Under the pieces are notes generated by a model. The model was not told the origin of the DNA and did no database searches. It saw only the letters and a list, made by a program, of their open reading frames with translations. From Eledone cirrhosa (taxonomy: Eukaryota), in NCBI GenBank assembly GCA_964016885.1, contig OZ024741.1, forward strand, positions 195,424,001 through 195,488,000: a DNA stretch of 64,000 nt, given 5' to 3'. Below are positions 1 through 50,775 of the stretch, in pieces. Position 1 is the first letter of the stretch. Each line of letters begins with the position of its first letter. The translations under genes were made by a program, and so were the position numbers.

Positions 1-2082
1 GGAAGGATGTCCTTATAAATCCTCCTGGAGAGTGTTTGTCGGAAGTCTCCGATGTCTTTGGGGAATTTTTGTTTTAGAGTCGTGTACGTTTTCTGTGTGA
101 TGCGAGTGATTTGTATGTGTAGAGGTGGTGTGAACTTTTGGGTTGTTGTGTAGTCTTTTTCTGTGATGCTGGTGTTGTGTTGCATGTAGTGTAATAATTG
201 GTTGTTGTTCAAATTTAATGCTGTGTAGTGTGTATCGTTTTGGTTGTTTTGTTTTGTTTGCGTTTGTTGTGGGTTTGTTTCTGTTAAGCTTTTTGGTGAC
301 TTTTGTGGTGTAGGTGATGGTGGTGTTGGGGTTAATGATGGTGAAGGTGTTGGTGTTTGTGGTGATGGGGTTGGTGATGCTGGTGTGGATGGTGGCATAT
401 CTGTCCTAACTTTTTTTTTTATACTCTATTTGTTTCCCTCTGTATTTTGTTTTTGGAGGGGGAAGGAAGAGAATTTTTTCTTTTTTGGTTTCTTTTTTTC
501 TTTTTTCCTGATACCGTTTCCCACTCCTCGTCGTCACAATCTGTTTCCAGTTGCGATAAGCCGGGGAGTGGAAAATCCTCCACAGGCGTTGGTTTTGGTT
601 GTGGCGTGGTGGATGGTGTAGGCGCTGGTGCTAGTGCTAGTTCTGAAGCGTTGGGTGGTGGTGGTGTTGGTTTTGCTACTGTTGCTGGGGTTGTTGCTGT
701 TACAGTTGCTTCTATTGTTGCTGCTATAGTTGTTGCTGCCATTTCTGCTGCTGGTGGTGTTGATTGTTTAGTCACTGGGGTGGGTAAGAGAGGTGGCCTC
801 AACCTTTTAGCCTGAGGGCAGAAAGCCCTTAGGTGGGTTCCTTCACCACAAACGACACACCTAGGTCTTCTGCCCTCGACGATTACGGTGAGGTGGTTGC
901 CGTCAGTGAGGTCTATTACCTCTGGGATCTCCTCAATGCTTTTATGGTCCGCTTGGATCAGGAGCTCCATCCCAGATCCGGACCAGTTCTCCTGCTTTTC
1001 TTTCGCTATTTCAATTATCTTGGTGTTGGCCTCGATGCCGGCGAGGACGGCAGCCATTAGCCAAGGAATTTCGATGGCCGGTGGAACGTGGGTCACCCTG
1101 ATCTTCACAAGTCTCTGGCCACAATAGCTTGGGACGAGTGTAAAGTTGTCACTTCTTAATGGGGCCATGGAGTGTTCTCTGGCCTCCTGTGGTGTTTCAA
1201 AGGACACGTCCACGGTTCCATACTTCTGCCCACGTCTGATGTGGGGGTTTTTTGCCCACTCATGTCCCAAAGCTTTTTGGATTTGGGACTCGGATGCCCC
1301 TTCCACTCGGCGCGATTTTATGTTAATTGTCCGATAAGACACGGTGCATAGGTGACGTTGCTCTATTTTATTAGGTGGGGGTGAGACTGACCCTGTACCT
1401 ATCTTTCTTTACCATTCCTTTGGCTTCTTCTAATTCCTCCTGAGTTACCTGGATCGCTTCGCACGTTTTTGCTACTCTGGCAAAACTCAGGGTAGTTTTC
1501 TTAATTTCATTGTTGCTGTTGTTGTTATCGTTATTTTTGCTATTGTTAATTTTAGTTTCAGTTGTGGTGGTGGTGGCGTCAGTGGTGTTCGGTGTGGAAG
1601 AGTTCATTTTGGTCGAATTCATTTCGATATCACGAGTTAATTTATTTTTTTTCTTTTGTTTCTGTTGTCGCTGTGGTGGTAGTGGTGGTGGCGGCTTTAA
1701 CACCTGCAGTCATTAGTAATGGCGGGAAATGAACGTCTGCCTGAGACAAATTTAAAATATTGCTACTGCTTACATTTCCAGTGTTGGCAAACGTAGCAAT
1801 ATTTACAATGGTGGTGTCGGTGTGAGGTGTTAGATTGTGAGGAAGGAGTGACTCTGAGTCAGCCATGATTTTTCAAAGAAAAAATTTTTGTTTGATAATT
1901 ATAAAAAGTTTAAATTTTGGGCTCAAGGCCCCGATATTTTTTAGTGTCCTTTTCAGAAATCAATGTATGTGCACTTATATACAGTTAACAATAAAAATTT
2001 TCCATAAATGGCAATTTTAAACAACTGAAAATAACAAACCTTTGCGGAGCTCACGATGATACGATTTACTACGTAGGTCACC
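1..2082 (-). mobile_element. 5' part of a Tx1/L1-like non-LTR retrotransposon (5' UTR plus frameshifted ORF1), continuing beyond the window start
   Basis: ORFs 1642-1866, 1371-1703 and 419-1342 look like one frameshifted gag-like ORF1. The 5' end abuts (TAA)n at 2083. Confidence 0.7.
419..1342 (-). pseudogene. ORF1 gag-like protein segment with a zinc knuckle
   Basis: CVVCGEGTHLRAFC fits CX2CX4HX4C, preceded by an RRM-like region and followed by a Pro/Thr-rich tail and basic patch. Confidence 0.7.

Positions 2083-2122
<40 letters not shown>
2083..2122. repeat. (TAA)n microsatellite, retrotransposon target
   Basis: Direct reading. Similar tracts at 2477-2495, 6660-6687, 12496-12511, 14371-14413 and 14674-14711. 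Confidence 0.95.
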
Positions 2123-2124
<2 letters not shown>

Positions 2125-2476
2125 GATTACCAAGCCAACATAATAAAAAATGGATGCAGCCCATTATGCCGTGTATGTAAAAAACAACCATGAAACCATT
2201 GATCATATAATTTCAATGTGCAGTCCTATAGCTCCAACCGAATACCTAAACAGGCACGACAGAGCTGCACAATACATACATTGGATAATGTGTAAGCATT
2301 TTGACCTGCCCCATCAAAAGAATTGGTGAGAGCATCAACCACCTCCCATACTTGAAAAAGATCACACCTTACTTGTGGAACTTTAGCATCCAAACAGACC
2401 GAAAAATAGATGCAAATAGACCTGATATAATACTGAAGGACTTTAAAAAGAGGGTATGCCAAGATAAATGCAGCTG
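2123..2476 (+). mobile_element. Short R4/Dong fragment with an internal deletion of about 400 bp
   Basis: Matches the reverse complement of about 7105-7442, joined directly to the 3' terminus aagataaatgcagctg (6688-6703), then (TAA)n. Confidence 0.9.
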
Positions 2477-2495
2477 TAATAATAATAATAATAAT

Positions 2496-3237
2496 GCTTT
2501 CTTTATTAACCACAAGGGTTTACACAAAGTAGACATTAAGGACAGTGCAGGCAATACAGGACAATACAGGACGGTACAAATGGGCATTTATGCGTGTAAA
2601 AAAAAAAACAGAGGATGTAACAAAAAGGGAACAATGGAAAATTCCCCAATAGGAGGAGACTTCCGAGGGCCATCGTGGAGAAAGCCCATTAAAAAAAAGG
2701 AACAATGAAAAATTCCCCAATAGGAGGGGGGAGACTTCTGAGGGCCATCGTGGAGAAAGCCCATTAAAAAAAAGGAACAATGAAAAATTCCCCAATAGGA
2801 GGGGGGGGGAGACTTCTGAGGGCCATCGTGGAGAAAGCCCATTAAAAAAGTCACGGTGACCCTGACCACTAGGGCAAGTGCCCTCTCCCAGTTTTCCACC
2901 TTCAATTTACGGGCCTCTCTCACCCAACTTTCAACAAAATGCTGGGAAGAGAGCACTTCCCTCTCTACCCTGATTTTCCCTTTCAAATGAAATTTGAAAA
3001 AGTTAATCAGGGCATCACTGAAGAGGTAAGTGCTCGTCTTCAGCCCTTTCAGAAGCGTCCACCACACTATCTCTTTTTCACATGGCCACCAGACAGATAA
3101 AAACTGCCTGCCCTTCCCGGCTAAAGGAAGAGGGCGGGGCAATCCTCACGATAGACTCAGCTGATAGCCGGATCCGTTCTACACGCGACAGCAGGTGTTC
3201 GACATAAACCCACAAGTCAGCAATGCTCGGACACTGG
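2496..3237 (-). mobile_element. 3' fragment of a Tx1/L1-like element (end of ORF2 plus 3' UTR)
   Basis: Peptide LINFFKFHLKGKIRVEREVL is shared with 11724-12188. The 3' UTR has a triplicated unit of about 65-70 bp, then aataaa and a (TTA)n tail. Confidence 0.8.
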
Positions 3238-6200
3238 AAATGGAAATAAAAAGGGGAAGAAAAATTAAAAATTAATTTTCACATACATGTTATGTTCATT
3301 CAGAGAAGAGAGTTCCTTTCTCTGTCCATCCTACTCTGCTTATAGCTTGGTTGTGACTGGTAGTAGGAGAGGGTAGAAGAGGAAGAAGGAGAGAGGGGGA
3401 ATCCCCCCCCTCCTCCTTACAAAAAAAAGAAGGCAACATCTTACCCTTACCTCTTAACCCAACCGCGTAGAAACTACGCGGACACCACACACAAAGAAAT
3501 AAGAAAACATCACCCCCAGGATGGACATTACAGCCCACTAGGAGATACCAAGGAAACCTCCATTATTACAACCACCAGCCACCCCCCAAAACCACCACAC
3601 ACAACAAACCAAAACCACTCGATATATTCAGCAGCGAAGGGCCCCTAAAACACAACTACCACACATGATATATAGGGACACACAACCACCCACTAAAGGG
3701 ACGCCCTAATCAACCACCCACTAAAGGGACGCCCTAATCAACTCACATCCACGAACCCGAACCTTCAATAACAACAGCAGGGAACAATACAACCACAGCA
3801 GACAACCCAACATCAACAACCATCACAACTACCTTAACCATTTTTTAGACCCAGTGCACAGACACAGGGAAACGAGATGACACAAGACATACAGGAGAGA
3901 CCAAAAGTAATAAAAGTAATAAATTTAACCACTAAAGAACTAACAACAGACCAAATCAACATACTCTCCAAAGGGCTGAAATTTACACCGACACCCCCAA
4001 CGCTCAACCTACCCCGAAATGAAGGAGGACATTACGGAATTCTGTAGAAAACTAAGACACAGCGAGGAACTACACGACAAGTACAATGAGGACGACTCAC
4101 TAGCTAGAAATAAAAGCAACTACATCCCAGCAAAAGGTAAGAACAAATTCCTAGACCAATTCTACGAACACATTACAAATTACCCATATCAACACCTACA
4201 CAGACATAAACACAAGCCAAACTTCAACAAGAAAGAATGGGATGAGCTGAACAGTTTAAAGATTGATAAAGCTTTAACAATAAAAGAGGCGGATAAAGAA
4301 GAGAGTGCGGTAGTCCTTATGGAGACAGAATATTATACAACCCTAGTACTCTCATCTTTAGAAGACGAAACATACTACAAAAAGGCTCAACACTACAGCC
4401 AACAGAAAATAATGAGAAACCTAAACACTCTAACAACCCTTTACAGAGAAGGACTTACCGACAAGGAATACAACTATATCACTGACTTCAAAAGCAAACC
4501 CATTTTCTACGGTATACAAAAACGAAAAAATAAGTAAGGCATGCAAGGAAGCTACAGACATATTCATCAATGTCCCCTGACCCAATGACCTCAAATTAAG
4601 ACCTATAATACCAGGTCCCGCTTGTGAAACCCACCGCTTGAGCAACTTCCTAGATATACTGTTAAAACCATTCCTGAAACACATTAAAGGCTACATAAAG
4701 GACGATCTTGATATGCCTAACCACCTCCCCAAAACACTTAATAATGAACATACCCTACTAGTGTCTTTTGATGTAGTCAACCTTTATTCCAATATCCCAC
4801 ACAACCTAGGAATAGAGGCAATCCAATTCTGGTAGAAAATTACCCCAATGAACTACCATACCGCATCATAAAAGAATTCGTAATGGAAGGGCTCAAATGT
4901 ATCTTGGAGAATAACTACTTCGAATTCGATACCAAATTCTACAGGCGGAAATCTGGGACTGCCATGGACACGAAAATGGCCTCCTCTTACGCCAATCTTC
5001 TTATGGGAGACTTGGAAATCACCCTCTACCGAAAAGTACTAGATAAATACGGAAACCCCTTCTACCTCCACCGAAAAAAAAACTAGAAGAGATATCTAGA
5101 TGATTGTTTCATCCTCTGGCATGAAAGTATAGAAAGGCTTATTGAATTTATAACACATCTAAATGGACTCAACACAAACATTCAATTTACAATGGAATAC
5201 TGCCGCGAACAACTTCCTTTCCTTGACATCCTTATCAAGAAAACCAACAACAAAATAGAAGCAAACATATATTATAAACCCACAGACTCCAAACTCAACA
5301 TCCAGGAACTTAGACACCCCAAACCAAGGAACGAATCAAAACTGAAAACTCTACCATACATCTCCACAGACAACCCCCTTAATAATGAGACCTTCGACAC
5401 CATCCTCCAGAACATACCTTTACTAAAAGAGACCTAAGAATGAATCAAATCCTTCAAACGCACATTATAAAGAGCAAAAGACAACCGAAATCAATGAAAA
5501 ACATCCTTACACTGGCCAAAGTCCAGCCGACCTTAACAATGAACCCTACAGTAAAAAATGTGGAAGACCCAACTGTGGTATATATATATCAACCTAATAG
5601 AGAGATTGGAGTTGCACTTCAAACAAGGACAACGCTTTACAGTTAAACACAAACGCATCAGAAAACCTGATTTATGTGTTGACTTGCTCGGGGTGTCGAG
5701 AGCACTACATAGGAGAGATCAAAAACAACCTCTGACAACGTATGATGACCGTCCATAGATCCCAAATCAAAATGCGGGAATACAGAAAGATAGCACTGTG
5801 TGAGCACATTGCGACCTGCGCAACCCAATTTTAGAATGTTTCCCATCTACAAATTCAAAGACAACGCTTCCTACATCCAGCGCATTAGCAAGGAATCACA
5901 ATTTATCGCCAAATACGAACGAACTCCTTCTAAATGCTTCCACTTCGGACTAAACCAAAGCTGGCACACTTTAAAATTAACACCCTAGACAAATTAATCC
6001 TTTAGCAATGTATACTTCTCCAAGATTCCAGCAACCTCTGACAACTATATAATGCAGACCAAGCAACCACATAGTAACACCCACATCAGCAAGTCCTGGA
6101 GGACCTCCACGAACAGCATAAATGGAAGCATGCAGGTGTCAAACTAAATGCTTTACATTCCTCTGAATCTGGAAGTTTCTGCTGAAGATAGAATGTGCAT

Positions 6201-6660
6201 TCCAGTAACTCTGAACCCCTTTTTGTGGCAAAATGTTCTCCATTCCCCTAAATCTGAAATTTCTGCTTGGGATGGAATTAGTATCTCAATAACTCTTTAT
6301 CTTCTTTGTGGCAAAAAACAAGGTCAATGTTGATGATTTCTTCTAAGAAAAAAATACCAAGATAGATTTTTTTTAGAAGCAATCAACCCTCCACCCCCTC
6401 CGGTCAACTCTAAGGTCACCCGACCTTTCAAACCAATCCCAGCTGGAACTTGTATCCACTCCTCAAAGGGCCTCTCACAGCAGTCTGGTAACACAACTAT
6501 CCCCTGCCTCCTCCTCCGTCTCCTCTCCTTCCTCTGCCCTCTCCTACTACCAGTCACAACCAAGCTATAGGTAGAGTAGGATGGACAGAGAAATGAACTC
6601 TCTTCTCTGAATGAACCTGTATGTGAAAATTAATTTTTCTTCCCTTTTTTATTTTCATTT
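3238..6660 (+). mobile_element. Penelope-like element (Neptune-like), degraded RT plus C-terminal GIY-YIG, flanked by inverted ~160 bp repeats
   Basis: Motifs LSKGLKFTPTP, SFDVVNLYSNIPH, NYFEF..SGTAM, RYLDDCF, LPFLD and ENLIYVLTCSGCREHYIGE (~5661-5717). Segment 3238-3402 is the reverse complement of 6498-6660. Confidence 0.88.
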
Positions 6661-6687
6661 TTATTATTATTATTATTATTATTATTA

Positions 6688-9600
6688 CAGCTGCATTTAT
6701 CTTGCTTTATGTTCATACGAGTTATCACCAAGTCACAACCAGTGACCTCAAGAGACAACAAGGTCCGCCATGTTCAAGAAAGAACATACATACTCACACA
6801 TGCTTCTTTAGGTGTTTAGACTTGTGATGTACTTATATTGACAGAATCTTCCTTAGTATATGGGCAGTTCCCATTACTACTATCTTTTGTATTTCTCCTA
6901 TACGCGGGTTTCCTGGGATTTGCGATAAGTAATCATTAGACCCCTTAGGTATCATTCCCAGAGCGCCTACAACCACTGGTATTGTTTTAGTTCTCAATTT
7001 CCACATTTTCCCAATTTCTATCTCCAGGTCCTTATACTTGCTCAATTTTTCAAATGTTTTTATAGATACATTCTTGTCTATTGGAACGGATATATCAATT
7101 AGCAGGCATACCCTCTTTTTAAAGTCCTTCAATATTATATCAGGTCTATTTGCATCTATTTTTCGGTCTGTTTGGTTGCTAAAGTTCCACAAGATTGAGA
7201 TGTGATCTTTTTCAAGTATGGGAGGTGGTTGATGCTCCCACCAATTCTTTTGATGGGGCAGGTCAAAATGCTTACACATTATCCAATGTATGTATTGTGC
7301 AGCTCTGTCATGCCTGTTTAGGTATTCGGTTGGAGCTATAGGACTGCACATTGAAATTATATGGTCAATGGTCTCTGGTTGTTTTTTACATACACGGCAT
7401 AATGGGCTGCATCCATTTTTTATTATGTTGGCTTGGTAATTTTTTGTTGGCAGACACTGATCTTGTGCTGATATAATCAGTCCTTCAGTCTCCGATTTCA
7501 GTCCAGAGGATGCCAACCACCGATGGGTTAAAGTTTTGTCAACATCAGGATTGTTAGCTCGTTCTGGGTATTTTCCATACAGAGGCTTTTCTTGCCATTT
7601 CTTAGCCAGTTTCTGTAGCAGTTCTTTCTTTGCAGTTACTTTTACCTGCTTTGCTTTTTCTGTGTTTTCCATTTCAGCAGTAAATGGGACTTCTGAAATT
7701 TGTAGTCCATTACTGTATCTTTGTGCATCTTTTGTAATGGAGTATGATCTTTTGATGCTTTCGTGTTTCAAAACGAGTTTGATCATCCAATCATGTGATT
7801 CCCTTAGATATGTAGATAATCCAATTGTTGCAGTTTTCAACGCAATGTCTAACTGGATTAACCCACGTCCTCCTTCTTTCCTAGGGAGATATATTCTATC
7901 TGTATCTGCCTTAGGGTGATGCATTCTGTGCATGGTTAAGAATTTTCGAATTTTTGTATCGAGCCTACAGATCTCTGTGCTTGACCAGTTGATGACATTG
8001 TAACTGTAGGTTACTACTGGTATGGCAAGCGTGTTTATGGCATCGATCCTATTCCTTGCATTCAATTCCGTTCTTAAGATTGCTCTTACTCTGCGGTAAC
8101 ATTCCTTCCTTATCCTTTCCCTCATTGTCGAGTGCTTGATTCCGTCTCCTTCACAAACACCTAGATATTTGTAAGTTTCCTCTTGATCAAGTTCTCTTAT
8201 CACATTCCCCCGATCAAGATTAATGTCTGAACTTTTCAGCAGCTTTTCTCTGGTGAACGTTGCTTTGGCGCATTTATCTAGTCCAAACTCCATTTTAATG
8301 TCATCACTGAACTGCTCCACAGTGGATAATAGCACTTGCAATTGTTCATCATTTTTTGCAAATAGTTTCAGGTCATCCATGTAGAACAAGTGATTAATGG
8401 TTTTGTCATAAACTTTATATCCATGTTTTGTTTCATTGAGCATTTTACTTAATGGTATAAGTGCGATGCAGAATAAAAGCGGTGATAAAGAGTCACCCTG
8501 AAAAATTCCACAATTAATATTAACTTCTCCAGCTTCCAGTGATTTTGTTTCACTATTCAAAAGGAGTGTCGTTTTCCATGTCTTCATACTGAATGACAAA
8601 AACCTCCTGACAACGGGAGATATTTTGAAAATCTCTAAACATTTTTCAATCCAACTGTGTGGCAAACTATCGAATGTTTTTTTATAATCTATCCAAGCAA
8701 TTGATAGATTTTTGTGTCTATTATGACAATCTTCCAGTATCATTTTGTTAACCAAAAGCTGATCCTTACAGCCATATGAGCCTCGTTTACACCCTTTCTG
8801 CTCAATGGGAAATAGGTCATTTGTTATCAGGTGATCATATGTATATTCAGTTAGGACTGATGTTAAAATTTTATACATTGTGGTCAAGCAAGTTATCGGT
8901 CTGTAATTTTTGGGATTGTTTGTCTCATCATTCTTCGGAAGCAGGAATGTAATGCCGTTAACTAGCCATGATGGTATCTTTTCTGGCTCCTTAACTAGTT
9001 GTAAAGTTGGGCTAACAGCTCATGAGACTCTGTGAAGGCATTTATCCAAAAATTTTGTATTTTGTCTTTTCCTGGGGATTTCCATTTGCTGGTTTTTCTT
9101 AGAGCCAAGCGCAACTGTTCAACTGTTATATTTTCCCATATTTGTTCCTCAATGTGAGCTGTATCTTTCATTTGTCTGTCTATCCATGGGGCATGTATAT
9201 TATGAACTTTTTCTTCGGCCCAGATCTTTTCCCAGAATTCTTGCACTTCCTCCTTGGGTGGTATTGATTTAGCAGTTATTGTTGACTTACCAATTTTTCT
9301 GTAGAAGTTTCTTTGGTTGTTTTTGAACATATTATTGTCCTTATAGAATCTAGATCGTTTTTCAAAGCGCCTTATACGAGCAGCTTTGGCCGACACTTTT
9401 TGCTTCATTATTTCTATCAGCATGTCTATGTCACTTGTTGATTTTATACTGTACTTTCTTTTCAATTTTCTAAGTTTAGTTTGTTTAACATGTTCACCTA
9501 CTTTATAGTTTGTTAAAATTTCTATGTCGGAGAAGGTTTATTTGGCGATTGATGTTCTCTTGCCAAGTAGATTTCTTGTGGGAATTCCTTTGTTTTTTCA

Positions 9601-10635
9601 TCTTCACTCCACATAAGTGAGTGGTGACTTTAGCCGATGCATAATAGAGATGATTTAAATCAGTAATGTTTAGTTTGTTTGTGATGATAATGTTTTTGAG
9701 AATTATGTTAGTCTTGTGTATTATTATCTTTTGGTTCTGTTTGAAGTTCTGGATCTTAGGGAGGGTGTCTCGTTCCCCCATGTCAGATTCTTTCATTTTC
9801 ATCCATTCGATCATAATTTCATCCTTCAAGTTGGCAAGTTCATTCTCATTCATTTCTTTATCATTTACGATCTCATTGTTTTCATTTGGAGTTTCATCTT
9901 GAGCATGCACTCCCTCCACTTTTTCGATCCTTTCTTTAATTTGTTCTGTTGTCAGTGATTCCGCCCCAAACCTGGGATTCGAAGTGTTACAATTTACCTC
10001 GTGTTCACTGACACATGTTTCATTTTCCCTTCGCTGACTTTGTGCTAATAGCTTGATCTGATCAATTTCTATATCAGTTAGTAACTTTTTTCTTACAATA
10101 TTTTTCGTATATTGGCTAGTTTGTTACTGTCAATATAGCCTCTGTTTTCGGGATGTTTCTTTTTCCAGTTGATATATGTCTGTTCTGTATTCGATATATT
10201 TGATGGGTAGTACCCGGCAGTGTAGAAAGCCTCAAGGACTTCTTTATTATCTTCCCTTGACCATTTTTCTCTCTTTTTCTTTGGATTTCTTGGTGGTGAG
10301 CCAACAGTAGGAGTATTCCGGTTATGGGAGGTCTCCAGCTCCGAAGTGATGGGAAGGTTTGAACCATTAGCTGATTTTTCGACCCCAGTCTGGTTCCTCT
10401 CTGAGGGACGCGGCCCTTTTTGACCCGGGTGACGGCCGATCCGGTATGAGATTTTATCATTAGACATTTACTTTATTTTGTCGCGTTTTATCCTTATCCG
10501 CCAAGGGGTAATCATTTCGTGTTACCACTTCTAGGACGAGTGTCAACCAAGACTAGAGGGGTCCTCTTCCCCTAGAGACACGGCTATTCCCCGCTGGCCG
10601 CCATCCCGGTATTTCTTGGTCACGGGGTTTTCTTT
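6688..10635 (-). mobile_element. Near full-length R4/Dong-clade RLE non-LTR retrotransposon
   Basis: One ORF split by frameshifts (10093-10467, 9503-9919, 8995-9465, 6833-8887). GC-rich 5' UTR; the 3' end joins (TAA)n. Confidence 0.9.
6833..8887 (-). CDS. RT + CCHC knuckle + restriction-like endonuclease (intact C-terminal 684 aa of a frameshifted ORF)
   Basis: WIDYKKTFDS, GIFQGDSLSP, YMDDLK, CRVCKKQPETIDHIISMC, RHD, NRPDI..LIDISVP, KYKDL. Confidence 0.9.
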   Translation of the reverse strand: MTTMYKILTSVLTEYTYDHLITNDLFPIEQKGCKRGSYGCKDQLLVNKMILEDCHNRHKNLSIAWIDYKKTFDSLPHSWIEKCLEIFKISPVVRRFLSFSMKTWKTTLLLNSETKSLEAGEVNINCGIFQGDSLSPLLFCIALIPLSKMLNETKHGYKVYDKTINHLFYMDDLKLFAKNDEQLQVLLSTVEQFSDDIKMEFGLDKCAKATFTREKLLKSSDINLDRGNVIRELDQEETYKYLGVCEGDGIKHSTMRERIRKECYRRVRAILRTELNARNRIDAINTLAIPVVTYSYNVINWSSTEICRLDTKIRKFLTMHRMHHPKADTDRIYLPRKEGGRGLIQLDIALKTATIGLSTYLRESHDWMIKLVLKHESIKRSYSITKDAQRYSNGLQISEVPFTAEMENTEKAKQVKVTAKKELLQKLAKKWQEKPLYGKYPERANNPDVDKTLTHRWLASSGLKSETEGLIISAQDQCLPTKNYQANIIKNGCSPLCRVCKKQPETIDHIISMCSPIAPTEYLNRHDRAAQYIHWIMCKHFDLPHQKNWWEHQPPPILEKDHISILWNFSNQTDRKIDANRPDIILKDFKKRVCLLIDISVPIDKNVSIKTFEKLSKYKDLEIEIGKMWKLRTKTIPVVVGALGMIPKGSNDYLSQIPGNPRIGEIQKIVVMGTAHILRKILSI

Positions 10636-11366
10636 TTTGTTGTTTTTTAAATTGTTATTACCATGAGTGGTTCCTTAATGTGAGCATTGCGTGGCTTAAG
10701 AATGAAATTATTAATAATATAATATACTTTTTGCTGAAGTTGCCTGTTATTGTTGTTGGCTATGTCGGTGGTGGTGCTGGGGCTTTTTCTATTGTTGGTG
10801 GGGAAGGGGGAGCCAGCATTGCCATAGTCGTTGACGTTTGGCCGGTGGCCGGGTCACTAAGTCAATCTATTTATATCTTTTGCTAGCCTCTCCCTTGTCT
10901 AGTGATACCGCCACCTTCCCCTTTCTTAAGTTAACAGAAGGTAATGGGGGAATAGTGGTGGTAGCAATGAAGGAGTGGTGGCGGCGGTGACTATAGTGAT
11001 GGCGTTGTCGTCACTGAGTTTTGTTGAATAGACTGTAGTTTTGTTTGATCTGTGTATCTATGCGTTTGTCGCGCATGTTTAATATATGTGTTGACATATT
11101 TTCTTAATATTGGAATTAAACATTTTGTGAAAACTTGAGACAATAATAATAGTAGTAATTATTATTATTATGCTGGGATTGGTGGTGGTGGTGGTGGTGA
11201 AATTGCCGTTATCTGGCTGTTGTATTTAGTGTACACAGAGGGGTGATGGGGTAGGTAGTGTATCTAGTTTCTGGTGTTGGTGAAATTGCTGTTATTTGGC
11301 TGTTCTATATAGTGTAGACAGAGGGGGTTTTCTTCCATTTATAACCATTTTCTTTATTATTATTAT

Positions 11367-12495
11367 ATGCTGTGGCTAATGATGTGCAGACATGCGTTGA
11401 GGCTGCGACATCTCCAGATATTCTGCCTCAATGGTGAACAGGTGTGGTCGCCGTTTATCAGACGGGCCTTTCCACAGCTCATTTCTTTGACTGAGCTGCA
11501 GTCCTGGGTCAAGAAGAAACCGAGACTGGGTGACTGGCACCTGGAATGTTGCCAGGCACTCACTGCCCTCTACCAAGCGGGCAATGCGATCAGTGGAACT
11601 TCCACTCTCGAGTTCTATAGAGGATTAGTGGTGGGAAAGTGCGATGACGCACTCGGAGAAGCTTTGGGCCTCGACTAAGTCGAACTGACCAGTCTGTACC
11701 GGAGGACTTTTGATCCGGGGACGATGGACAATTTCCAGAAATCCCTCGCTTGGCAGTGCTACCGGGGGGCACTGCCGGTTCGGGATAAACTCTACAGGCA
11801 CGGAAGTGCTGTCAGACGGACCTGCCCAAGATGCGCACAGAACGACGAAACCGTTCTGCACGCACTTGTCCAATGTCCGTGCATTACTGACTTGTGGAGT
11901 TATGTCAAACAGCTACTGTCGCGTGTGGAATGTATCCGGCTATCGGCCGAGTCCATAGTGAAGATCGAGCCGCCACCTTCCTTAGGATATTTTCCTCTGT
12001 CTGGTGGCAGTTGCGAAAGAGATTATATGGTGGACCAGGTTGAAAGGACAGACACTTTTCTCTTCGGCCAATCCCTCATCAACTTCTTCAAGTTTCACCT
12101 GGAAAGGAGGGTGAGGGTGGAGAGAGAAGTGCTGCCCCCCAGTACATTTGCTAAAAGGTGGGTGATGTGGCGAGAATGGCTCGTGTGAATGGGCCTACTC
12201 TGACCATGCGCCTATAGGCTGGCTAACTTGAGGAGAGGGGTGCTCTCCTGGGTGCCCTAGAAGCGCAGGGTGGTTCAGGATTGGTGGGGTACCCGAATCA
12301 CCCCAGGGTCGTCCACCCCCTATCGGGGAATTTATTTTGTTATATTTATGCATAGTTTATTTTATATTTTTATATTTTCATTGTTAAATTAGTCTTGCCA
12401 TTGTGCACTTTTACTCGACCTTATTGTAAACCCCCACTGTCCCTGTCTTTGTATTGTCCCCTACATGTCGGCCCTTGTGGCTAATAAATGAAATC
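11367..12495 (+). mobile_element. 5'-truncated Tx1/L1-like element (C-terminal zinc-finger region plus 3' UTR)
   Basis: W..YRGALPV..CPRCAQNDETVLHALVQC (zf-RVT type). Flanked by (TTA)n on both sides. Confidence 0.85.
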
Positions 12496-12511
12496 ATTAT
12501 TATTATTATTA

Positions 12512-13171
12512 CAGTTGCATTTATCTTGCTTTATGTTCATACGAGTTATCACCAAGTCACAACCAGTGACCTCAAGAGACAACAAGGTCCGCCATGTTCA
12601 AGAAAGAACATACATACTCACACATGCATCTTTAGTGTTTAGACTTGTGATGTACTTATATTGACAGAATCTTCCTTAGTATATGGGCAGTTCCCATTAG
12701 TACTATCTTTTGTATTTCTCCTATACGCGGGTTTCCTGGGATTTGCGATAAGTAATCATTAGACCCCTTAGGTATCATTCCCAGAGCGCCTACAACCACT
12801 GGTATTGTTTTAGTTCTCAATTTCCACATTTTTCCAATTTCTATCTCCAGGTCCTTATACTTGCTCAATTTTTCAAATGTTTTTATAGATACATTCTTGT
12901 CTATTGGAACAGACATATCAATTAGCAGGCATACCCTCTTTTTAAAGTCCTTCAATATTATATCAGGTCTATTTGCATCTATTTTTCGGTCTGTTTGGAT
13001 GCTAAAGTTCCACAAGATTGAGATGTGATCTTTTTCAAGTATGGGAGGTGGTTGATGCTCCCACCAATTCTTTTGATGGGGCAGGTCAAAATGCTTACAC
13101 ATTATCCAATGTATGTATTGTGCAGCTCTGTCATGCCTGTTTAGGTATTCGGTTGGAGCTATAGGACTGCA
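12512..13171 (-). mobile_element. 5'-truncated copy of the Dong element
   Basis: Nearly identical to 6688-7348; encodes the RLE domain; (TAA)n tail. Confidence 0.95.
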
Positions 13172-14148
13172 TATTCGGTTGGAGCTATAGGACTGCATTA
13201 TTCGGTTGGAGCTATAGGACTGCATTATTCGGTTGGAGCTATAGGACTGCATATTCGGTTGGAGCTATAGGACTGCATATTCGGTTGGAGCTATAGGACT
13301 GCATTATTCGGTTGGAGCTATAGGACTGCATATTCGGTTGGAGCTATAGGACTGCATATTCGGTTGGAGCTATAGGACTGCATTATTCGGTTGGAGCTAT
13401 AGGACTGCATATTCGGTTGGAGCTATAGGACTGCATTATTCGGTTGGAGCTATAGGACTGCATATTCGGTTGGAGCTATAGGACTGCATATTCGGTTGGA
13501 GCTATAGGACTGCATATTCGGTTGGAGCTATAGGACTGCATATTCGGTTGGAGCTATAGGACTGCATTATTCGGTTGGAGCTATAGGACTGCATATTCGG
13601 TTGGAGCTATAGGACTGCATATTCGGTTGGAGCTATAGGACTGCATATTCGGTTGGAGCTATAGGACTGCATTATTCGGTTGGAGCTATAGGACTGCATT
13701 ATTCGGTTGGAGCTATAGGACTGCATATTCGGTTGGAGCTATAGGACTGCATATTCGGTTGGAGCTATAGGACTGCATTATTCGGTTGGAGCTATAGGAC
13801 TGCATATTCGGTTGGAGCTATAGGACTGCATTATTCGGTTGGAGCTATAGGACTGCATTATTCGGTTGGAGCTATAGGACTGCATATTCGGTTGGAGCTA
13901 TAGGACTGCATATTCGGTTGGAGCTATAGGACTGCATTATTCGGTTGGAGCTATAGGACTGCATATTCGGTTGGAGCTATAGGACTGCATATTCGGTTGG
14001 AGCTATAGGACTGCATATTCGGTTGGAGCTATAGGACTGCATATTCGGTTGGAGCTATAGGACTGCATTATTCGGTTGGAGCTATAGGACTGCATTATTC
14101 GGTTGGAGCTATAGGACTGCATTATTCGGTTGGAGCTATAGGACTGCA
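13146..14148. repeat. Tandem array of 38 x 26 bp (tattcggttggagctataggactgca) derived from the Dong ORF
   Basis: Unit equals 7323-7348. Counted by eye: 38 units, 15 of 37 junctions with an extra T, no substitutions seen. Confidence 0.95.
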
Positions 14149-14368
14149 CTTGCCTTGGTGGTCAGGGTCATTGTGGCTTTTTACTGGGCTTTCTCCACAA
14201 ATGTCCCTCCGAAGTCTGCCCCCTATTGGGGAATTTTTCATTGTTATTTTTTGTTACATCCTCTGTTTTTGTTTTTTACACGCAGAAATGCCCATTTGTA
14301 CCGTCCTGCATTGTCCTGCACTGTCCTTAATGTCTACTTTATGTAAACCCTTGTGGTTAAAAAAGAAA

Positions 14369-14415
<47 letters not shown>

Positions 14416-14672
14416 TGTCTGTAAATTAAAGGTGGCAAACTGGGAAAGGGCACTTACCCTGGTGGTCAGGGTTACTGTGGCCTTTTACTGGGCTTTCTCC
14501 ACAAATGTCTCTCCGAAGTCTCCCCCCTATTGGGGAATTTTTCATTGTTATATTTTGTTACATCCTCTGTTTTTGTTTTTTACACGCAGAAATGCCCATT
14601 TGTACCTTCCTGTATTGTCCTGTACTGTCCTTAATGTCTACTTTATGTAAACCCTTGTGGTTAATAAAGAAC

Positions 14673-14711
<39 letters not shown>
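14149..14711 (+). mobile_element. Two head-to-tail 3'-end fragments of the Tx1-like family, each with a (TTA)n tail
   Basis: 14149-14370 and about 14416-14673 match each other and the reverse complement of 2496-2900. Confidence 0.85.
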
Positions 14712-14712
<1 letters not shown>

Positions 14713-14912
14713 CACTATCTGTACAAATATGCAACTTAATATTCTGCATATCCGCAATTAACAATGATTATAATGCTGAAACCGGTATTGTAAATAAATT
14801 AATGTTTTGATATCTCACTGAAAAATCTCTTCAACATTTTCTACTGAAAGAATATTTTTCCTTTCTACTATTTGTTTTCATATATATCAACTCGTGTGCT
14901 ACTTTTCTACAT

Positions 14913-17493: not shown

Positions 17494-19323
17494 TGTAATA
17501 ATTGTTCACACTTCCGTAGTCATCTCCTGGTCTTCCGTGTACTGTGGTTTTTTTCACCAGAGAGAGAGAGTGACCATGTATTCATACGCAATTTACCATT
17601 GGTCTGTTTAACCTTATTGCATATGAAAATGTTGCTATTGCGAGGTACAAACGTAGTTCTACTACATCACCCTCTGCTTAGACTAGAAAGCAGTCGATAA
17701 AAATGAGGAGAAAATGTCTGCAAATGTAACATAAGTCATGCAAAGCAAATACAAAAATGAAGAAAAAAGAGAAAAAAAGAATAGTTCATATGTAAATTGT
17801 TTTACAAAGTTTCTTGGGCCAATGTACCTGACGACCACTACGAGTTGTCGTGATGTATGTTGAAGATAAAGGAGTGTTTGTATGTGATTGTGGTGTTTGT
17901 GGTGGTGTTTGTATTGACACATTGTAGGAGGGGGGAGTATGAGGCTCTGGTGTGAGAGCATCTGTGTAGGCCCGCTTTAGTCTGTCAATAGAGACTGTGT
18001 CTTTATGTCCATTAAAGTCAATGGTGAAATCTGTACGTGCAAGTACGCGATAGGGTCCAGAATAAGGCGGAGTGAGAAGACTTCTCACTGCGTCATTTCT
18101 GACAAAAACATGGGTCCACGAGGCAATGTCCCTCGGAACCGAAGATTTAATGGCTTGTTGCCTAGTGTTCATAGGAGGTAGGACTTGAAAATACGAACGC
18201 AAACGGGTCACATAGAGTGTAGGATCCTGAGTAGAAAGGTCAACTGGAGCAAGCATCTGCCCTGGCAAAGATAAAGTAGTGCCGTACAAAGGCTCGGCGT
18301 AAATCCAAGGTCCTCTTTAATTGAAGTACGGATACCGAGTAGTACTATGGGGAGGTAGTCTCTCCACTGTAGAGTATCCGGATAGGCACGCAATGCGGCC
18401 TTTAACTGGCGATGAAAATGCTCTACCATTCCATTCGATGCAGGATGGTAACTGATAGTCCTGATGCGTTGAGCGCCGATGATATTTGATAGATCTGTGA
18501 AAAGTTGAGATTCGAACTGCCTACCTTGGTCTGTAGTAATAGTGGTAGGAATTCCGTAGCGTGATATCCACCCTGAAACCAGGGCTCGCGCTACTGATTC
18601 AGCACTAAGAGGGGTGGATTTAGACCATCGGGTGAAACGGTCAATGCAGATCAGAATGTATGAACATCCACGACTGGCAGGCCAAGGTCCCACGATATCA
18701 ATGTGTATGTGGCAAAAACGTGCGTCAGGTGTGCTAAATGTGCCGAGAGGTGCGCGAATATGTTTATGCACCTTCGACTTCTGACAAGACAAACAGTAAC
18801 GTGACCAAGCAGTGATATCACGTCTCATATTCGGCCAGAAGAATCTAGCTGAAATGAGTTTAACTGTGGTGGAAATTCCAGCGTATGCCAGACTGTGTAG
18901 AGAGTCGAAAACTATTCGACGATGAGTCTCTGGTACCAGAGGGCGAGGTGAATCTGTCGCAGTAGCACACAGAATCTGAGAGTACGAAGTGGGTACAGGA
19001 AGGTATTTGAATTTGCAGGTTGCTAATTCAGTTGAAGAGAGATCTAGGGTGGGCTGTTCTGCAGCCATAAGATGCAAGTCAATATTCTCAGGTGCTGACA
19101 AGGAATAGATGGGTAGGCGAGATAAGGCATCCGCCGCTCTATTTTGTTCACCAGGTATAATTGTTCACACTTCCGTAGTCATCTCCTGGTCTCCCGCGTA
19201 CTGTAGTTTTTTCACCAGAGAGAGAGAGTGGCCATGTATTCATACGCAATTTACCATTGGTCTGTTTAACCTTATTGCATATGAAAATGTTGCTATTGCG
19301 AGGTACAACGTAGTTCCACTACA
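17494..19323 (-). mobile_element. Internally deleted Ty3/Gypsy LTR retrotransposon (integrase only)
   Basis: LTRs at 17494-17666 (TG..CA) and 19157-19323; purine-rich PPT at 17667-17679; no TSD found. Confidence 0.88.
17786..19150 (-). pseudogene. Gypsy integrase (zinc-binding, DDE, GPY/F), frameshifted
   Basis: NRAADALSR, CLSCQ, HIDIVGP, TTDQGRQFES, ASNGMVE, PYSGPYRV. Confidence 0.88.
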
Positions 19324-32078: not shown

Positions 32079-33007
32079 TTAAGTCATTTTCTGTTAAATC
32101 ATTACAGGATATAAAGAACAAAGAAATACCATTGGCATATTTTGTTTCATATGTTAATTTCACAGAAACTAACAGAGATGCAAAATACAACTTTAAATTT
32201 GCATTTACAATTGCAATGAGTGGAGAAATGCTGTGCTGAAATGAACCCATTGAACCCAATGAGGATGATGATGATGGTGATGAAAATAGGGGGGGGGGGG
32301 AATACTTAAAAATAAAGAGCAAATGAGAATCAGTTAAATTGAGATTTTAAATTTGTAGGACTGGATTAAGATATAAAATATACATACAACAACAACAACA
32401 ATAATAACTTAGGATTGAAACCAAATCATTGACTGGATTCAATAAGCTAATAAGTGCAACAATACCATATTTAATAATTATAAAGACAACAGCTCTTTTT
32501 TCATAATAATAACCTCGATGTCCATCAAAGTTATTTTTGTGCCTTTATTCATTTCTATATGAAAATCTATATCTTCAAAGGACTTCGACTACGAAATTTG
32601 CAATAATTACCCATTTTCCTACATGATAGATACTTTGATTAGATTTATGGTGAATAATTTGATCACTTTACAAAAGTGTTGGTTTCTGAAACCATGACTA
32701 CACTTAAAGACCGAGTAAAATGGACTAGAAGTAGCAAAGTAAAGCTGTTGTCTAGACAACAAGCTGCTTCTATTGAAAGATAGTATACTGCGATAATACA
32801 CAGGAACCATCCATTGTGCTTTTATAATTATACTGTAATGATGCTAGCGGCAGAGAGTGTATATCATAGGATTAAGGAGATTTAGACTGTACGTCAGCAG
32901 AGAAAGTTGATATTGAAATAGATTGTTCACATATATCAATAAGATGTCAAAACAATGAATGATGTCAGCTAGTTCAAAAGACTATATTTAGCCATGTTTC
33001 TCTTCCT

Positions 33008-34813
33008 GTGACCAGTCTTATAGAAACACAGGTCTCCACACATTACAGATCCATGGAACACTGCCATCGACAGCTACCAGCTTGCATGCTTACAAGGACA
33101 GATTCACACTTTACTGAAGATGTGGTTAATACCTTCACGTATTGGCAGGCTTTAAGCTGGATTGAAGAGAAGCAAATCTTTTTGAAAATATTCATTGATT
33201 TACTCAAAATCTATCCAAGAATTATTCAAGAAAAAGCTTATGATTCTCTCTGGAATTTTATTCTTCCATTATTACCAAATTCTGCTGCAGATTTAGCTCC
33301 GCTGGATACAGTCTCACCTCTTCATATGCAAATTTCTTCACCAGCCTCATCCCCAGATTCTCCGACATGTTTAAATAGTTTTTTAATTAGTGCCAACCAA
33401 GAGATAAGAAGTGACAAGAACTTCCCCTTAGAACAAATTGCTGTCAAGACATCTGATTATATTTCCCCAAAAAAGGGCCAATTCAGAAGAAAGAAAAAGA
33501 GCACAAAAATCCCCAAAATACCATCAATTTTTATCTCATCTGTTCCTACTGCATCTCACTTGGAAGGCAAGAAATTACCCAGGGCAGACATTGTTTATGC
33601 AAATAAAGTCTTTGTATGCCGGGATCCAAATAACATCAAAGATATTATGAGTTCTGCTGTCTTAGGTTCTGTATCTGCTGTTACATTTCTCCATTGTATG
33701 GTTCCAACTTTACAATTAGCAAACAACATAATCACAGAATGTAATGCTTTCATATTCATTTTTAGTGAATCAACGATTTCTTCTAGTGAATGTCTTTCAC
33801 AACTTAAACAGGCTCTTGACTACCAATTGCCAATTATTTTTGTGCGATATCCAGACTTTCAGCTTCCATGTAACATCAAAGAGATTATTACCAAATGTTG
33901 TGAATCAATGGATAATCTAAACCAATACCTTTCAGTAAGAAGGCGAAGTTTTATTATTTCAAATTCTTTGAAGAATAACCCAAATTCAAGTGACATTGGT
34001 TGTTTGTCTGACAGAGAAATGTCATCTACTTCTCCTTTACTAAACCACCGAAAAAACAATAAAAAATCACCTCCTCTGCTTAGTTCTGCAAATAAAAAAT
34101 CTGAAATCTTAAAAAAAACTGTTCATAATGTGATAAATGCCTTACAAAATGGTTATAAACAATCGCATTTGTACTCTTATAAATTACATGTCAGTTGTAT
34201 TTCACAAATTATAGATTCTATATCTCGTATACTTAAAGCACCAATATCTTATGATACTGCATATTTCCAACAGACCAAAAAATACCTTTGCAGGAAAGCA
34301 TCTCATCATTCAAAGAATACTTCACCAATCAATAAGAAAATAGTAAAACCAAAGAACACATCAACAGAAAAACCAACTGATGACTGTAGCCAAATTCTCA
34401 TAGATCCACAATTTTCAAATTCAAATCTAACAGCCAAATGTTCAATCCATCAGAAAAACAGTGACAATAATGTAACAGCTTCCTCATTCTCTACCTCTCT
34501 AAAATTAGAGAAAAATATAAATCAGGTAACTAGTACAGTAATGGATGATGGACATTGTAATAATCCACATTTGCCTCCATTTAATGAAGCTTCTTCCATA
34601 AAAGAAACTTCCTTTATTGTTTTTCCAAAAACAAGTTCCCAACTTGACCAAAAACCAGTTGTAGTTAAATGGCCACCACCATGGAATAGTCTTGATTTAG
34701 AGAATGCAACAAATATACCAAGAGATGAAACAGAATCTCAGATTTCTAACAATTTTGTTGATCTGGACCTAACTAAAGAATTTAATCCATATTCAGATGA
34801 TGATTTTTTTTGA
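33008..34813 (+). CDS. Probable host coding exon, uncharacterised protein with TIR-like segments
   Basis: 1.8 kb stop-free, non-repetitive frame, open from 32963. First ATG at 33053 (tccATGG); possible acceptor tatttag at 32991. TIR-like ITECNAFIFIFSESTISSSECLSQLKQALDYQLPIIFVR. aataaa near 35150. True start unknown. Confidence 0.75.
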   Translation: MTSLIETQVSTHYRSMEHCHRQLPACMLTRTDSHFTEDVVNTFTYWQALSWIEEKQIFLKIFIDLLKIYPRIIQEKAYDSLWNFILPLLPNSAADLAPLDTVSPLHMQISSPASSPDSPTCLNSFLISANQEIRSDKNFPLEQIAVKTSDYISPKKGQFRRKKKSTKIPKIPSIFISSVPTASHLEGKKLPRADIVYANKVFVCRDPNNIKDIMSSAVLGSVSAVTFLHCMVPTLQLANNIITECNAFIFIFSESTISSSECLSQLKQALDYQLPIIFVRYPDFQLPCNIKEIITKCCESMDNLNQYLSVRRRSFIISNSLKNNPNSSDIGCLSDREMSSTSPLLNHRKNNKKSPPLLSSANKKSEILKKTVHNVINALQNGYKQSHLYSYKLHVSCISQIIDSISRILKAPISYDTAYFQQTKKYLCRKASHHSKNTSPINKKIVKPKNTSTEKPTDDCSQILIDPQFSNSNLTAKCSIHQKNSDNNVTASSFSTSLKLEKNINQVTSTVMDDGHCNNPHLPPFNEASSIKETSFIVFPKTSSQLDQKPVVVKWPPPWNSLDLENATNIPRDETESQISNNFVDLDLTKEFNPYSDDDFF

Positions 34814-48134: not shown

Positions 48135-50775
48135 TTATTTTAATGACTACTGCTCATCCATATCCCCAGTCACCCTGGGTAAAGCGCTAACCTTTGCCCA
48201 GAAAAATTCGGACCTTACCTCGGACGAAATTAAAATAATACTAGCTGCTAGAAGGATTATCATTAGATTCGAAAATAGTTACTGGGAACGAAACACAGAC
48301 AGAATAGCTTCGATATCACAATGGGATCTAACGGACTTGGTGGGAATATATATAGCGCACAACTTACATAAGGAATTCAATAACCTCCAAGGAGTAATTT
48401 ACAGAGACGACACACTCCTTTTAGCCAAAAACTTAAATAATCAAAACATTGAAAAATTACGAAAAAACATTAGAGTATTCTTCAACAAACTAGGCCTAGG
48501 CATCACTTTCGAACTTAACTCTAAAAAGTAAATTTCTTAGATATAACACTCAACCTAAATACAGGATTAATAGAGCCCTTCCATAAGAACAACGAGAATC
48601 TAGCCCTTCCATAAGCATAACAACAAACCACCCCCGATCCATATTTAACTCCATAGCACATAGTATATCCCTCAGAATATCCCGCCTATCTTCGAACCTA
48701 GACATTTTTAACGAACACGCAAACTATTATAACATAGCTTTACATAAGGCTGGACATAAGGAGAAGCTGGAATACATATTAGATAGAGACAGCAACAACA
48801 AACCTAACGACAACAACACTACCCTCTCATATAGAAATAACAAGCATTGGACTAAGCATAGAATTAGACAACGAGCACCAAAAATAACTGAACCGAACAC
48901 TAATATAAGGACCCCCAAAAACTATAGAAGATCCAGAGATAGAAAGTACCTATGGTTCAATCCAATATTCAACTCCTCTATAAAAACTAAACTACCTTCT
49001 ACATTCTTTAAACTAATAGATAAGCACTTCCCTACACTACACAAATACCATAGAATCTTTAATAGAAAAACTATAAAACTATCCTACTCTATTGCAGCCA
49101 ACATAGAATCACACATACGTAAAATCAACCACAAAAATATCTCTAAAGAAATTAACCTACCAACATACACCATAGCACCAAATACAAAACGCAAACACAT
49201 AACAACATCACAACCACAACTGCATCAGAACGCATCACAACAAAACACTAATAGGCCTAAATCACAACCCACCCACAACAACTTACAAAACCGCAACGGA
49301 GAACCTGCACACAAAAAATCCTCAAATTCTAATTGCCACCTACCGGATAAGTGCCCACTACAGAATAGATGCCTGGATTCGAGTATGGTATACCTGTGTA
49401 CTCTAGATTCAGGCAACTCTACTTGGCACTACATAGGTTCCACGGCTGAGGAGTTCAAGAAAAGGTGGTACGTCCACAGACACTCCATGAAGAACCGTAG
49501 ACTAGAGAACTCTATGACGCTCGCCAATAAAATCTGGCATCTTATAAACAAAAACCTAGAATATAAGATTAACTGGTCAAAATTATCGGTAGCAAGAGCT
49601 TACAGCAACGGAATGTCTCACTGCGGACTTTGTAATTTAGAACCACTCCATATTTTAAGGTACGATGGGATGCTGCTTAACAGCAAAATAGAAAGATCAA
49701 TTTTCTGTAGGCATAAAATAGCTACCAGATTCACAAACTTCAAACCACCATGATTTGAACCAGCAATCCCAAAATTAAAACTGAATCACCTAGATTTTAG
49801 CATATAGAATATCATCGCACTGCTATTAGCTGTCAAACGGCCAACTGGTCACTGGATCATAATTCTCTGAACATCTCTTTCACCCTCTTTCCCTGAAACA
49901 ACATCAACCCCATTAAGATAGAACAATCAGCAAAACATTTACAACACACGTTTGTCAAACGTCCCTTCACAATCCACCCCTAGCCCATAAATCTCATACA
50001 TGTATCCCCCAATTAATCTCTAATTTATTGCTTTTTCTTTTTTCTTTTATCTGTCACTACATCAGACCCTCTACACGTATCTATATATATTTCGAATCTG
50101 GTTTTACATGTTAGCACTAAACCCACCAAGGAATCCTTATAAGAACACTTACTCACCACCACCACAAACATAATGTGGATTGGCAGTATCGGTAGAGGGT
50201 CAGACACCATGCTTTGCAGCATAGAGTTACGACCCTTTACGATCTGAGTTCAAATCCCGCCGAGGTTAACTTTGCCTTTCATCCTTACGAGGTCGATAAA
50301 ATAAAGTACCAGTAATGCACTGGGATAATTGCTGGCCTTGTGCCAAAAGTAGAAATAACTATGTACTTACATGTTCTCACTTATCCTTATTTATTTCTTT
50401 ATATTTTCCATTTTCTTATTTTCTTACTTTTTTAATGTATCCTATCTTACCTTTTACTTTTTACTTTTTACTTTTTACTTTTTACTTTTTACTTTTTACA
50501 TCTGTAACTTCTCTACCTATTTACCATATGTGTTTTATTATCGATGTTATTGTTTTGATTATACGCTATTCTTTTATATATGTCTTGCCTCGAGTGAATT
50601 TTTTTTTATATCTACGTACTCTGATGTGTTGACCAGAGGTAAATAATGTATTGGAGATCGAGTGGCGCAACTTCAAGCGATTAGCGACCTATAGACTCAC
50701 CTGATCAACGAAACAATTGTCAGTACTTTAAATAAAGCCCTTATTGTACAGCCAACCATGTTACTCTTCATTCTT

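Follow-up and report, generated by a model that had tools for sequence, protein, structure and literature searches.

A perfect 38-copy array of a LINE's terminal 26 nucleotides at a 5' truncation point in Eledone cirrhosa

Minisatellites of the MS32 type are made of two variant units that are interspersed with each other. It is not settled how the 5' junctions of LINE insertions form and whether the element's reverse transcriptase (RT) or host repair writes the extra bases there, which also matters for R2-based gene insertion. According to the available parts of the papers cited in this paragraph, the R2 RT needs an untemplated addition in order to jump to a new template and does so best from an overhang of one or two bases onto an RNA ending in a 3' A (PMC8857657). 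Concatemers of short templates of this kind are made by L1 ORF2p in vitro (PMC10830420), and endonuclease-dead R2 gives head-to-tail repeats in cells (PMC11371274). The same bases could come from repair: at cDNA 5' junctions in Drosophila, the extra bases depend on PolQ, and those added by the RT are mostly A (PMC3280974). DNA polymerase theta primes on a single base and works in iterative rounds (PMC5068794, PMC4912351), with a reported error rate of 1 in 30 in its C. elegans inserts (PMC5068794). Here we analyse a kilobase array at the 5' truncation point of a LINE copy, within a window of 64,000 nucleotides, which is the whole stretch of DNA that we studied.

The array, the truncated copy and their surroundings

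The tandem array extends from 13146 to 14148 on the plus strand, which is the cDNA strand, and is composed of 38 units of 26 or 27 nt, as defined by repeat detection and exact unit matching. A tandem-repeat scan of the window returned 38.0 copies of a 26-nt unit, whose 25-nt core is invariant, with 38 exact matches across the array. There are no substitutions in the 950 nt of core, and none in the 925 core bases that were re-copied. The perfect 38-copy array of a 26-nt unit at a LINE truncation point, as given in the preliminary description, is confirmed. Neighbouring units are joined by T at 22 of the 37 joints and by TT at the remaining 15, in the order 0110010010100001000110010110010000111 (1 = TT). 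The earlier claim of an extra T at 15 joints with no period also holds: comparison with 10,000 shuffles revealed no periodicity (best lag p = 0.83 over 18 lags), the runs and LZ complexity of the joint order are unremarkable against shuffles, and the commonest 7-mer of the T/TT code occurs three times (p = 0.19). The first unit is the truncated copy's own last 26 nt, colinear with the element; beyond the unit, a different sequence follows in the longer copy of the window and in all 30 of the other copies compared. Because it is a segment of an abundant LINE, the 26-mer itself has 3516 exact matches in the 3.0-Gb assembly. The head-to-tail joint has 37, all of them inside this array.

The truncated copy lies at 12512 to 13171 on the minus strand and retains the 3' UTR and the last 171 codons, with the end of the CCHC knuckle and the PD..D endonuclease region, as judged from its translation and from its 98.5% identity to the longer copy in the window. 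The latter, which we used as reference, is a near full-length member of the same Dong/R4-like family (6690 to 11150, minus strand, upper end approximate; Pfam RVT_1, E = 1.3e-28), with a piece of the RT ORF at 6833-9019 and a single copy of the 26-nt unit at 7323-7348. The best solved relatives of its RT are R2 proteins (E = 2.3e-26), aligned through the RT, the CCHC knuckle and the PD..D endonuclease. An open ORF of 1216 aa was found in three sampled copies and one of at least 900 aa in nine, and a motif search located the C-terminal CCHC knuckle and PD..D motif in all nine long ORFs. At 136 of 174 non-internal 5' ends of the family, (TTA)3 is reached within 120 nt. The element is an R2-like non-LTR LINE (RT, CCHC and PD..D) that inserts at (TAA)n targets, and the position of the array at the 5' truncation point of such a copy, reported earlier for a Dong element, is borne out. 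We use Dong/R4-like as a working label, drawn from the motifs and the (TAA)n targets; a look-up for its RT gave generic RT clusters only. In the available parts of the respective papers, Dong (R4 clade) is described with a flank of TAA repeats (PMC3774820) and Dong-R4 LINEs as recently active in Octopus vulgaris (PMC13282606). A second truncated Dong-like piece, internally deleted, is located at 2083-2495 of the window.

When compared with 197 copies, the truncated copy has no private substitution in 659 nt, and 48 of these copies are likewise free of private substitutions. The copy is young, among the youngest of the family, and the perfect array can therefore be as old as the insertion.

Repeats border the locus on both sides. 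At the 3' end of the element, an (ATT)n run (12496 to 12511, plus strand) constitutes the target or tail and is common to the tail of the left neighbour, an arrangement found alike in other copies. That neighbour is the 3' end of an L1/Tx1-like LINE (11679 to 12495, plus strand), composed of the remnant of a zf-RVT ORF at 11679-12188 (Pfam zf-RVT, E = 8.9e-10) and a 3' UTR. At the right junction (14146 to 14149, plus strand), GCA(C) is common to the last unit and the next repeat, with no (TTA)n between them. The gcac microhomology proposed earlier for this junction stands for GCA (14146-14148), which is surely shared, but not for the final C, which can derive from either side. The absence of (TTA)n between array and next repeat points to a likely loss of target DNA, either during insertion or later. 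Such a loss is not rare, since a nearby (TTA)n run is also absent at 38 of 174 other non-internal ends, and the original right end of the array may be gone. The next repeat (14146 to 14415, plus strand) is a 3' UTR fragment of a second, putatively Tx1-like LINE family, with an (ATT)15 tail and many genomic copies; it is related to 2477-2910, which continues into sequence 71% like the zf-RVT region. The Tx1-like label is carried over from the preliminary description and has indirect support only. Another 3' UTR fragment of this putatively Tx1-like family, 93% identical and with its own (ATT)n tail, follows at 14417 to 14712 (plus strand). We searched the assembly with the right flank for a haplotig or for an allele without the insertion, and its only matches were the locus itself and copies of the family. 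A run contig that joins (ATT)n to the right-hand repeat at 14150 was rejected as a candidate empty allele, as six other assembly loci share its junction.

Other repeats and frames were noted in the window. In the part from 1 to 14720, two or more LINE families are nested, each inserting in the other's tail, so that one (ATT)n run serves an element on either side. A 75-nt repeat of 3.1 copies lies inside the Tx1-like family 3' UTR (2622-2849), and a perfect 28-nt repeat of 2.1 copies in another element (3683-3742). Integrase zinc-binding and core domains mark a fragment of an LTR-type retroelement on the minus strand (18208-19164), and three plus-strand open frames of 616, 388 and 346 codons (32963-34813, 48587-49753 and 59383-60423, respectively) have no Pfam match.

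The T/TT alternation was checked in public contigs of three sequencing runs from one sample. The animal sampled may be that of the assembly, and the runs give no independent support for the locus. All three contain, without mismatch, the 53-nt sequence of the T joint (depths of 165.8, 181.1 and 139.8) and the 54-nt sequence of the TT joint (220.6, 213.3 and 210.6). A reduced-representation (RAD) run has no depth on the array, which is no sign of its absence. The two joint types, for which confirmation in reads had been advised, are therefore not a read error. The share of TT is 0.57, 0.54 and 0.60 in the runs versus 0.405 in the assembly, and the depth of TT-TT neighbours (100-110) is about half of the TT depth, compared with 5 out of 15 in the assembly. 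A rough estimate, scaled on one rounded family depth, gives approximately 93-108 joints in the diploid sample as opposed to the 37 assembled. Rare 1-nt deletions are scarce in the assembly (seven in 89 young copies of 659 nt, none at two-base runs), which makes ordinary consensus error an unlikely cause of the gap in TT share. The assembled joint order is not the sole form of the array, and the higher TT share in the runs likely reflects another allele or individual with a different string, or later turnover. This probable allelic variation is deduced from joint depths in runs and assembly.

Terminal re-copying at other junctions of the family

We surveyed 214 element-bearing loci. They come from the top of the listing of places, lie nearly all on contig C1 and are not a random sample. 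Five of the 136 5' junctions flanked by (TTA)n carry terminal direct re-copies of at least 10 nt, as compared with a mean of 0.01 and a maximum of 1 in 150 shuffles; at 8 nt, the count is seven out of 136 (shuffle mean 0.17). In this test the match is confined to the filler between the element end and the target run, a requirement that was tightened after a first version with a looser definition of filler, which had returned 5 out of 121 against a null mean of 2.7 and was not significant. The re-copied units at other junctions measure 43, 21, 14 and 8 nt. Those of 14 nt occur in about five copies with two kinds of start (L157) and those of 8 nt in about 4.5 copies (L253). These junctions show that, in this LINE family, the re-copying of terminal bases goes with the formation of the junction. 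There is no second long array among the 214 loci surveyed, and the array under study is the extreme of a class that reflects a family-wide tendency.

The preliminary description had suggested looking for self-derived arrays at other Dong 5' junctions, and they exist: in addition to the five re-copies, a 43-nt array ends at the same boundary. At this locus (L251; G000:C1:373616400-373618400, 889-1055, minus strand), 3.9 copies of the unit share the end base of the 38-copy array, and every joint (3 out of 3) re-enters at a T without other homology, before (TTA)n is reached. The LINE copy is independent and older, with 97.1% identity to the copy at 12512-13171, and its units 2 and 3 have one substitution in common. 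L251 is the sole further array near the boundary among the matches listed in genome-wide pattern searches, one pattern of which skips G at the last place. Those searches listed 72 out of 72 and 100 out of 224 matches, respectively, and the others among them are unrelated minisatellites.

The end base of both arrays is also a preferred site of truncation. Twelve of the 46 loci truncated in a 30-nt window are simple truncations at this base (counted by eye, with 100 of 103 listed), and 11 such truncations have independent flanks. The corresponding probability is P = 0.0004 for one pre-specified site among nine A-ending sites, or 0.004 if the site is not set in advance. The same five bases as in the TT joint are present at 10 of the 12 simple truncations, and the start of the unit is the only target-like 4-mer in the element's last 45 nt. 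A stem of 6-7 bp touches the boundary. We rejected a hairpin as the cause of the stop, since folding is no better than in shuffles (z of -0.68, 0.76 and 0.13) and L251 has no pairing partner.

The survey returned further repeats of various kinds. Runs of (CTT)n stand directly at the element 5' ends of L025, L022, L211, L196, L203, L223 and L078, and in L025 and L223 they lie between the element and the (TTA)n target; they may be reiterated last bases or compound microsatellites. In L024 and L237 the element end is followed by a few target triplets, by the element end again and then by the target. Repeats of 9-30 nt in two to four copies occur at internal deletions or duplications of element copies (L199, L208, L221, L239, L187, L112 and L101). 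L087 contains an inverted snap-back piece, and the 5' junction of L027 is joined to a copy of about 20 nt of the element's 3' flank, resembling a target-site duplication. Elsewhere in the genome, long minisatellites with interspersed variants are located on C2 near 90.07 Mb (14 nt), C2 near 391.97 Mb (34 nt), C9 near 4.82 Mb (42 nt) and C1 near 20.1 Mb (20 nt). The 14-nt minisatellite has a unit equal to an element segment, and no match was found that links it to the element end.

Origin of the array

The reading that we put first, with a probability of roughly 0.45, is that the array was mostly made in one event by the element's RT at insertion, and that some units were reshuffled later. On arriving, during insertion, at a favoured end of its RNA template, the RT would add one or two untemplated T's. 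It would then re-engage, at an A, a short piece left over from that RNA (such as a stretch spared by RNase H beneath the enzyme), and copying of this remnant round after round would produce an array of 26-nt units, some of which could be gained, lost or exchanged after insertion. In all 37 joints both borders of the unit are reused exactly, and the T joints offer no more than one base of homology, which suggests a template with physical ends. Re-entry occurs at a T in 37 out of 37 joints, and the joints of 0-2 added bases are as in RT template jumping. Since both arrays at the boundary re-enter at T, they fit the R2 RT jumping onto an RNA with a 3' A. The probability of no errors in 925 bases is 0.05 at an assumed rate of 1 in 300 and 0.83 at an assumed 1 in 5000.

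We also simulated the possible origins of the T/TT order with simple models of our own. Independent draws fit it with a joint probability of 0.17. Single-unit slippage and large-block duplication are excluded, blocks of five to eight units are unlikely, and duplication of two to three units and unequal exchange give the observed order with a joint probability of 0.03-0.08. As these last fit almost as well, the lack of period is weak evidence for one event. In favour of a one-event birth, the copy is young and older seeds are short (L251 stayed at four units), and turnover after birth is in any case what one would expect of a long perfect array. From the single-event re-copying by RT that was proposed at the outset, the re-copying at junctions, the youth of the copy and the reality of the T/TT joints are retained, whereas the RT as the enzyme, the single event that gave most of the units, an RNA remnant as the template and the boundary as a true RNA 5' end are what we infer. 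It is conceivable, though less likely than not, that, in a more general form of this scheme, the LINE RT locks onto a short RNA remnant at a fixed cleavage site and copies it dozens of times per insertion, telomerase-style, so that kilobase minisatellites would be born whole at 5' junctions and the 26- and 43-nt arrays would be their fossils.

Re-copying linked to insertion very probably made at least the seed of the array, and growth may have come afterwards. Junction formation, by the RT or by a repair polymerase, would in this case have given two to four units with one T and one TT joint, and minisatellite mutation (small-block slippage, unequal exchange and conversion) would have grown and shuffled them to 38. 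This sequence of events deserves appreciable weight, short of even odds. Seeds of two to five units are present at other junctions, the joint order is compatible with 2-3-unit duplication and unequal crossover, and the runs indicate a differently composed allele (TT share of 0.54-0.60 versus 0.405). The substitution common to units 2 and 3 of L251 is a sign of later copying at the level of units, and minisatellites with interspersed variants are numerous in this genome. However, no private substitution in 659 nt of copy and none in 950 nt of array leave little time for growth, the older seeds stayed short, and the single-unit and large-block routes are excluded by simulation.

The whole array could also be the work of a host repair polymerase of the theta type that linked the cDNA end with the target and primed anew on one to four bases each time, for example on a 26-nt single-stranded gap; the TT joint would then be an ordinary junction with a (TTA)n target. 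The sharing of five bases between this joint and 10 of 12 simple truncations agrees with such an origin, and so do the start of the unit at the only target-like 4-mer within 45 nt and the alternation of element end and target repeat in L024 and L237. The 2-4-copy repeats found also at internal deletion junctions (L199, L208, L221 and L239) are the signature of this polymerase. It fits the long array poorly because 925 bases were copied without error, which at 1 in 30 has a P of about 2e-14. In addition, the array has a single origin and direction, with no inverted or mixed-origin pieces, none of the 37 joints has a second extra base, and the re-entry site of L251 has no likeness to the target. 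Polymerase theta is thus an improbable author of the array, and a good candidate for the short, imperfect repeats, those at internal deletions among them.

The preliminary description had also considered a piRNA or sliced fragment as template. That a mature 26-nt piRNA, or many such molecules, with the same 5' end as the sliced element RNA was repeatedly copied now appears very improbable. The sense unit has U at position 1 and A at position 10, and the boundary coincides with a truncation hotspot, as a slicing site would. On the other hand, the unit of the other array ending here measures 43 nt, 25 of the 68 clean truncations carry A at position 10 (a share of 0.37, where the background is 0.40), and the excess of U at the first base (22 out of 68) is not separable from an effect of target homology. 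The 37 joints lack the variation in 3'-end length that a pool of piRNAs would be expected to show, and the position of the sole target-like 4-mer in the last 45 nt accounts for a length of 26 nt just as well. The hotspot may still mark a cut RNA end. Lastly, an assembly or sequencing artefact is hardly credible: the joint proportions do differ between runs and assembly and no run contig is listed across either outer junction, a gap that proves nothing, but both joint types are exact contigs at a depth of 140-220 in three out of three runs and rare 1-nt deletions are scarce in the assembly.

Significance and comparison with known systems

Should one event be able to write a kilobase array, as in the RT reading that we put first, retrotransposition would lead directly to minisatellites. 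With later growth, the locus would still record the birth of a minisatellite that can be dated and is unusually clean. No host function is suggested for the array. Within one genome, the family forms a graded series of 2, 4, 5 and 38 copies, and a single site has two arrays alongside 11 plain truncations. Because two arrays arose at one defined site, the question of RT versus polymerase theta becomes testable with two short RNAs. In the available parts of the literature, with subscription papers mostly outside its scope, we found no report of a long or kilobase perfect array of a LINE's terminal segment; supplements such as junction tables could hold cases.

Several described systems resemble this locus in part, as far as the available parts of the cited papers go. 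Template jumping by the R2 and L1 RTs (PMC8857657, PMC10830420, PMC11371274) is alike in its concatemers of short templates, its one or two added bases and the use of a 3'-A acceptor under a T overhang. There, however, the jump leads to a further RNA present in excess, or the template is repeated as a whole, whereas the locus here has 37 chromosomal repetitions of an internal segment, the terminal 26 nt, with T as the added base throughout. The extra bases at non-LTR 5' junctions (R1 and R2, PMC2718515) and at group II intron cDNA ends in Drosophila (PMC3280974) share with our locus the filler from neighbouring sequence and the microhomology, but these fillers are short and mixed, and none amounts to a perfect array of 1 kb built from the end of the element itself. 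Insertions by polymerase theta (PMC5068794, PMC4912351) have in common the iterative copying beside a DNA end and the one-base priming; they are about 10 bp on average, error-prone and of mixed orientation, while the array is long, error-free and one-way. Telomerase and the bacterial DRT2 (PMC12039810) likewise copy one short RNA segment repeatedly into tandem DNA. Theirs is a programmed process with a dedicated RNA and precise joints, whereas the array looks like an occasional by-product, imprecise at its joints and without a function known so far. Minisatellites of the MS32 type are similar in unit size, in two variants in irregular order and in likely allelic variation, and differ in that the variant here is a joint base rather than an internal substitution and the birth can be traced to a single junction of retrotransposition. 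The filling of junctions, template jumping and insertion by polymerase theta have each been described before.
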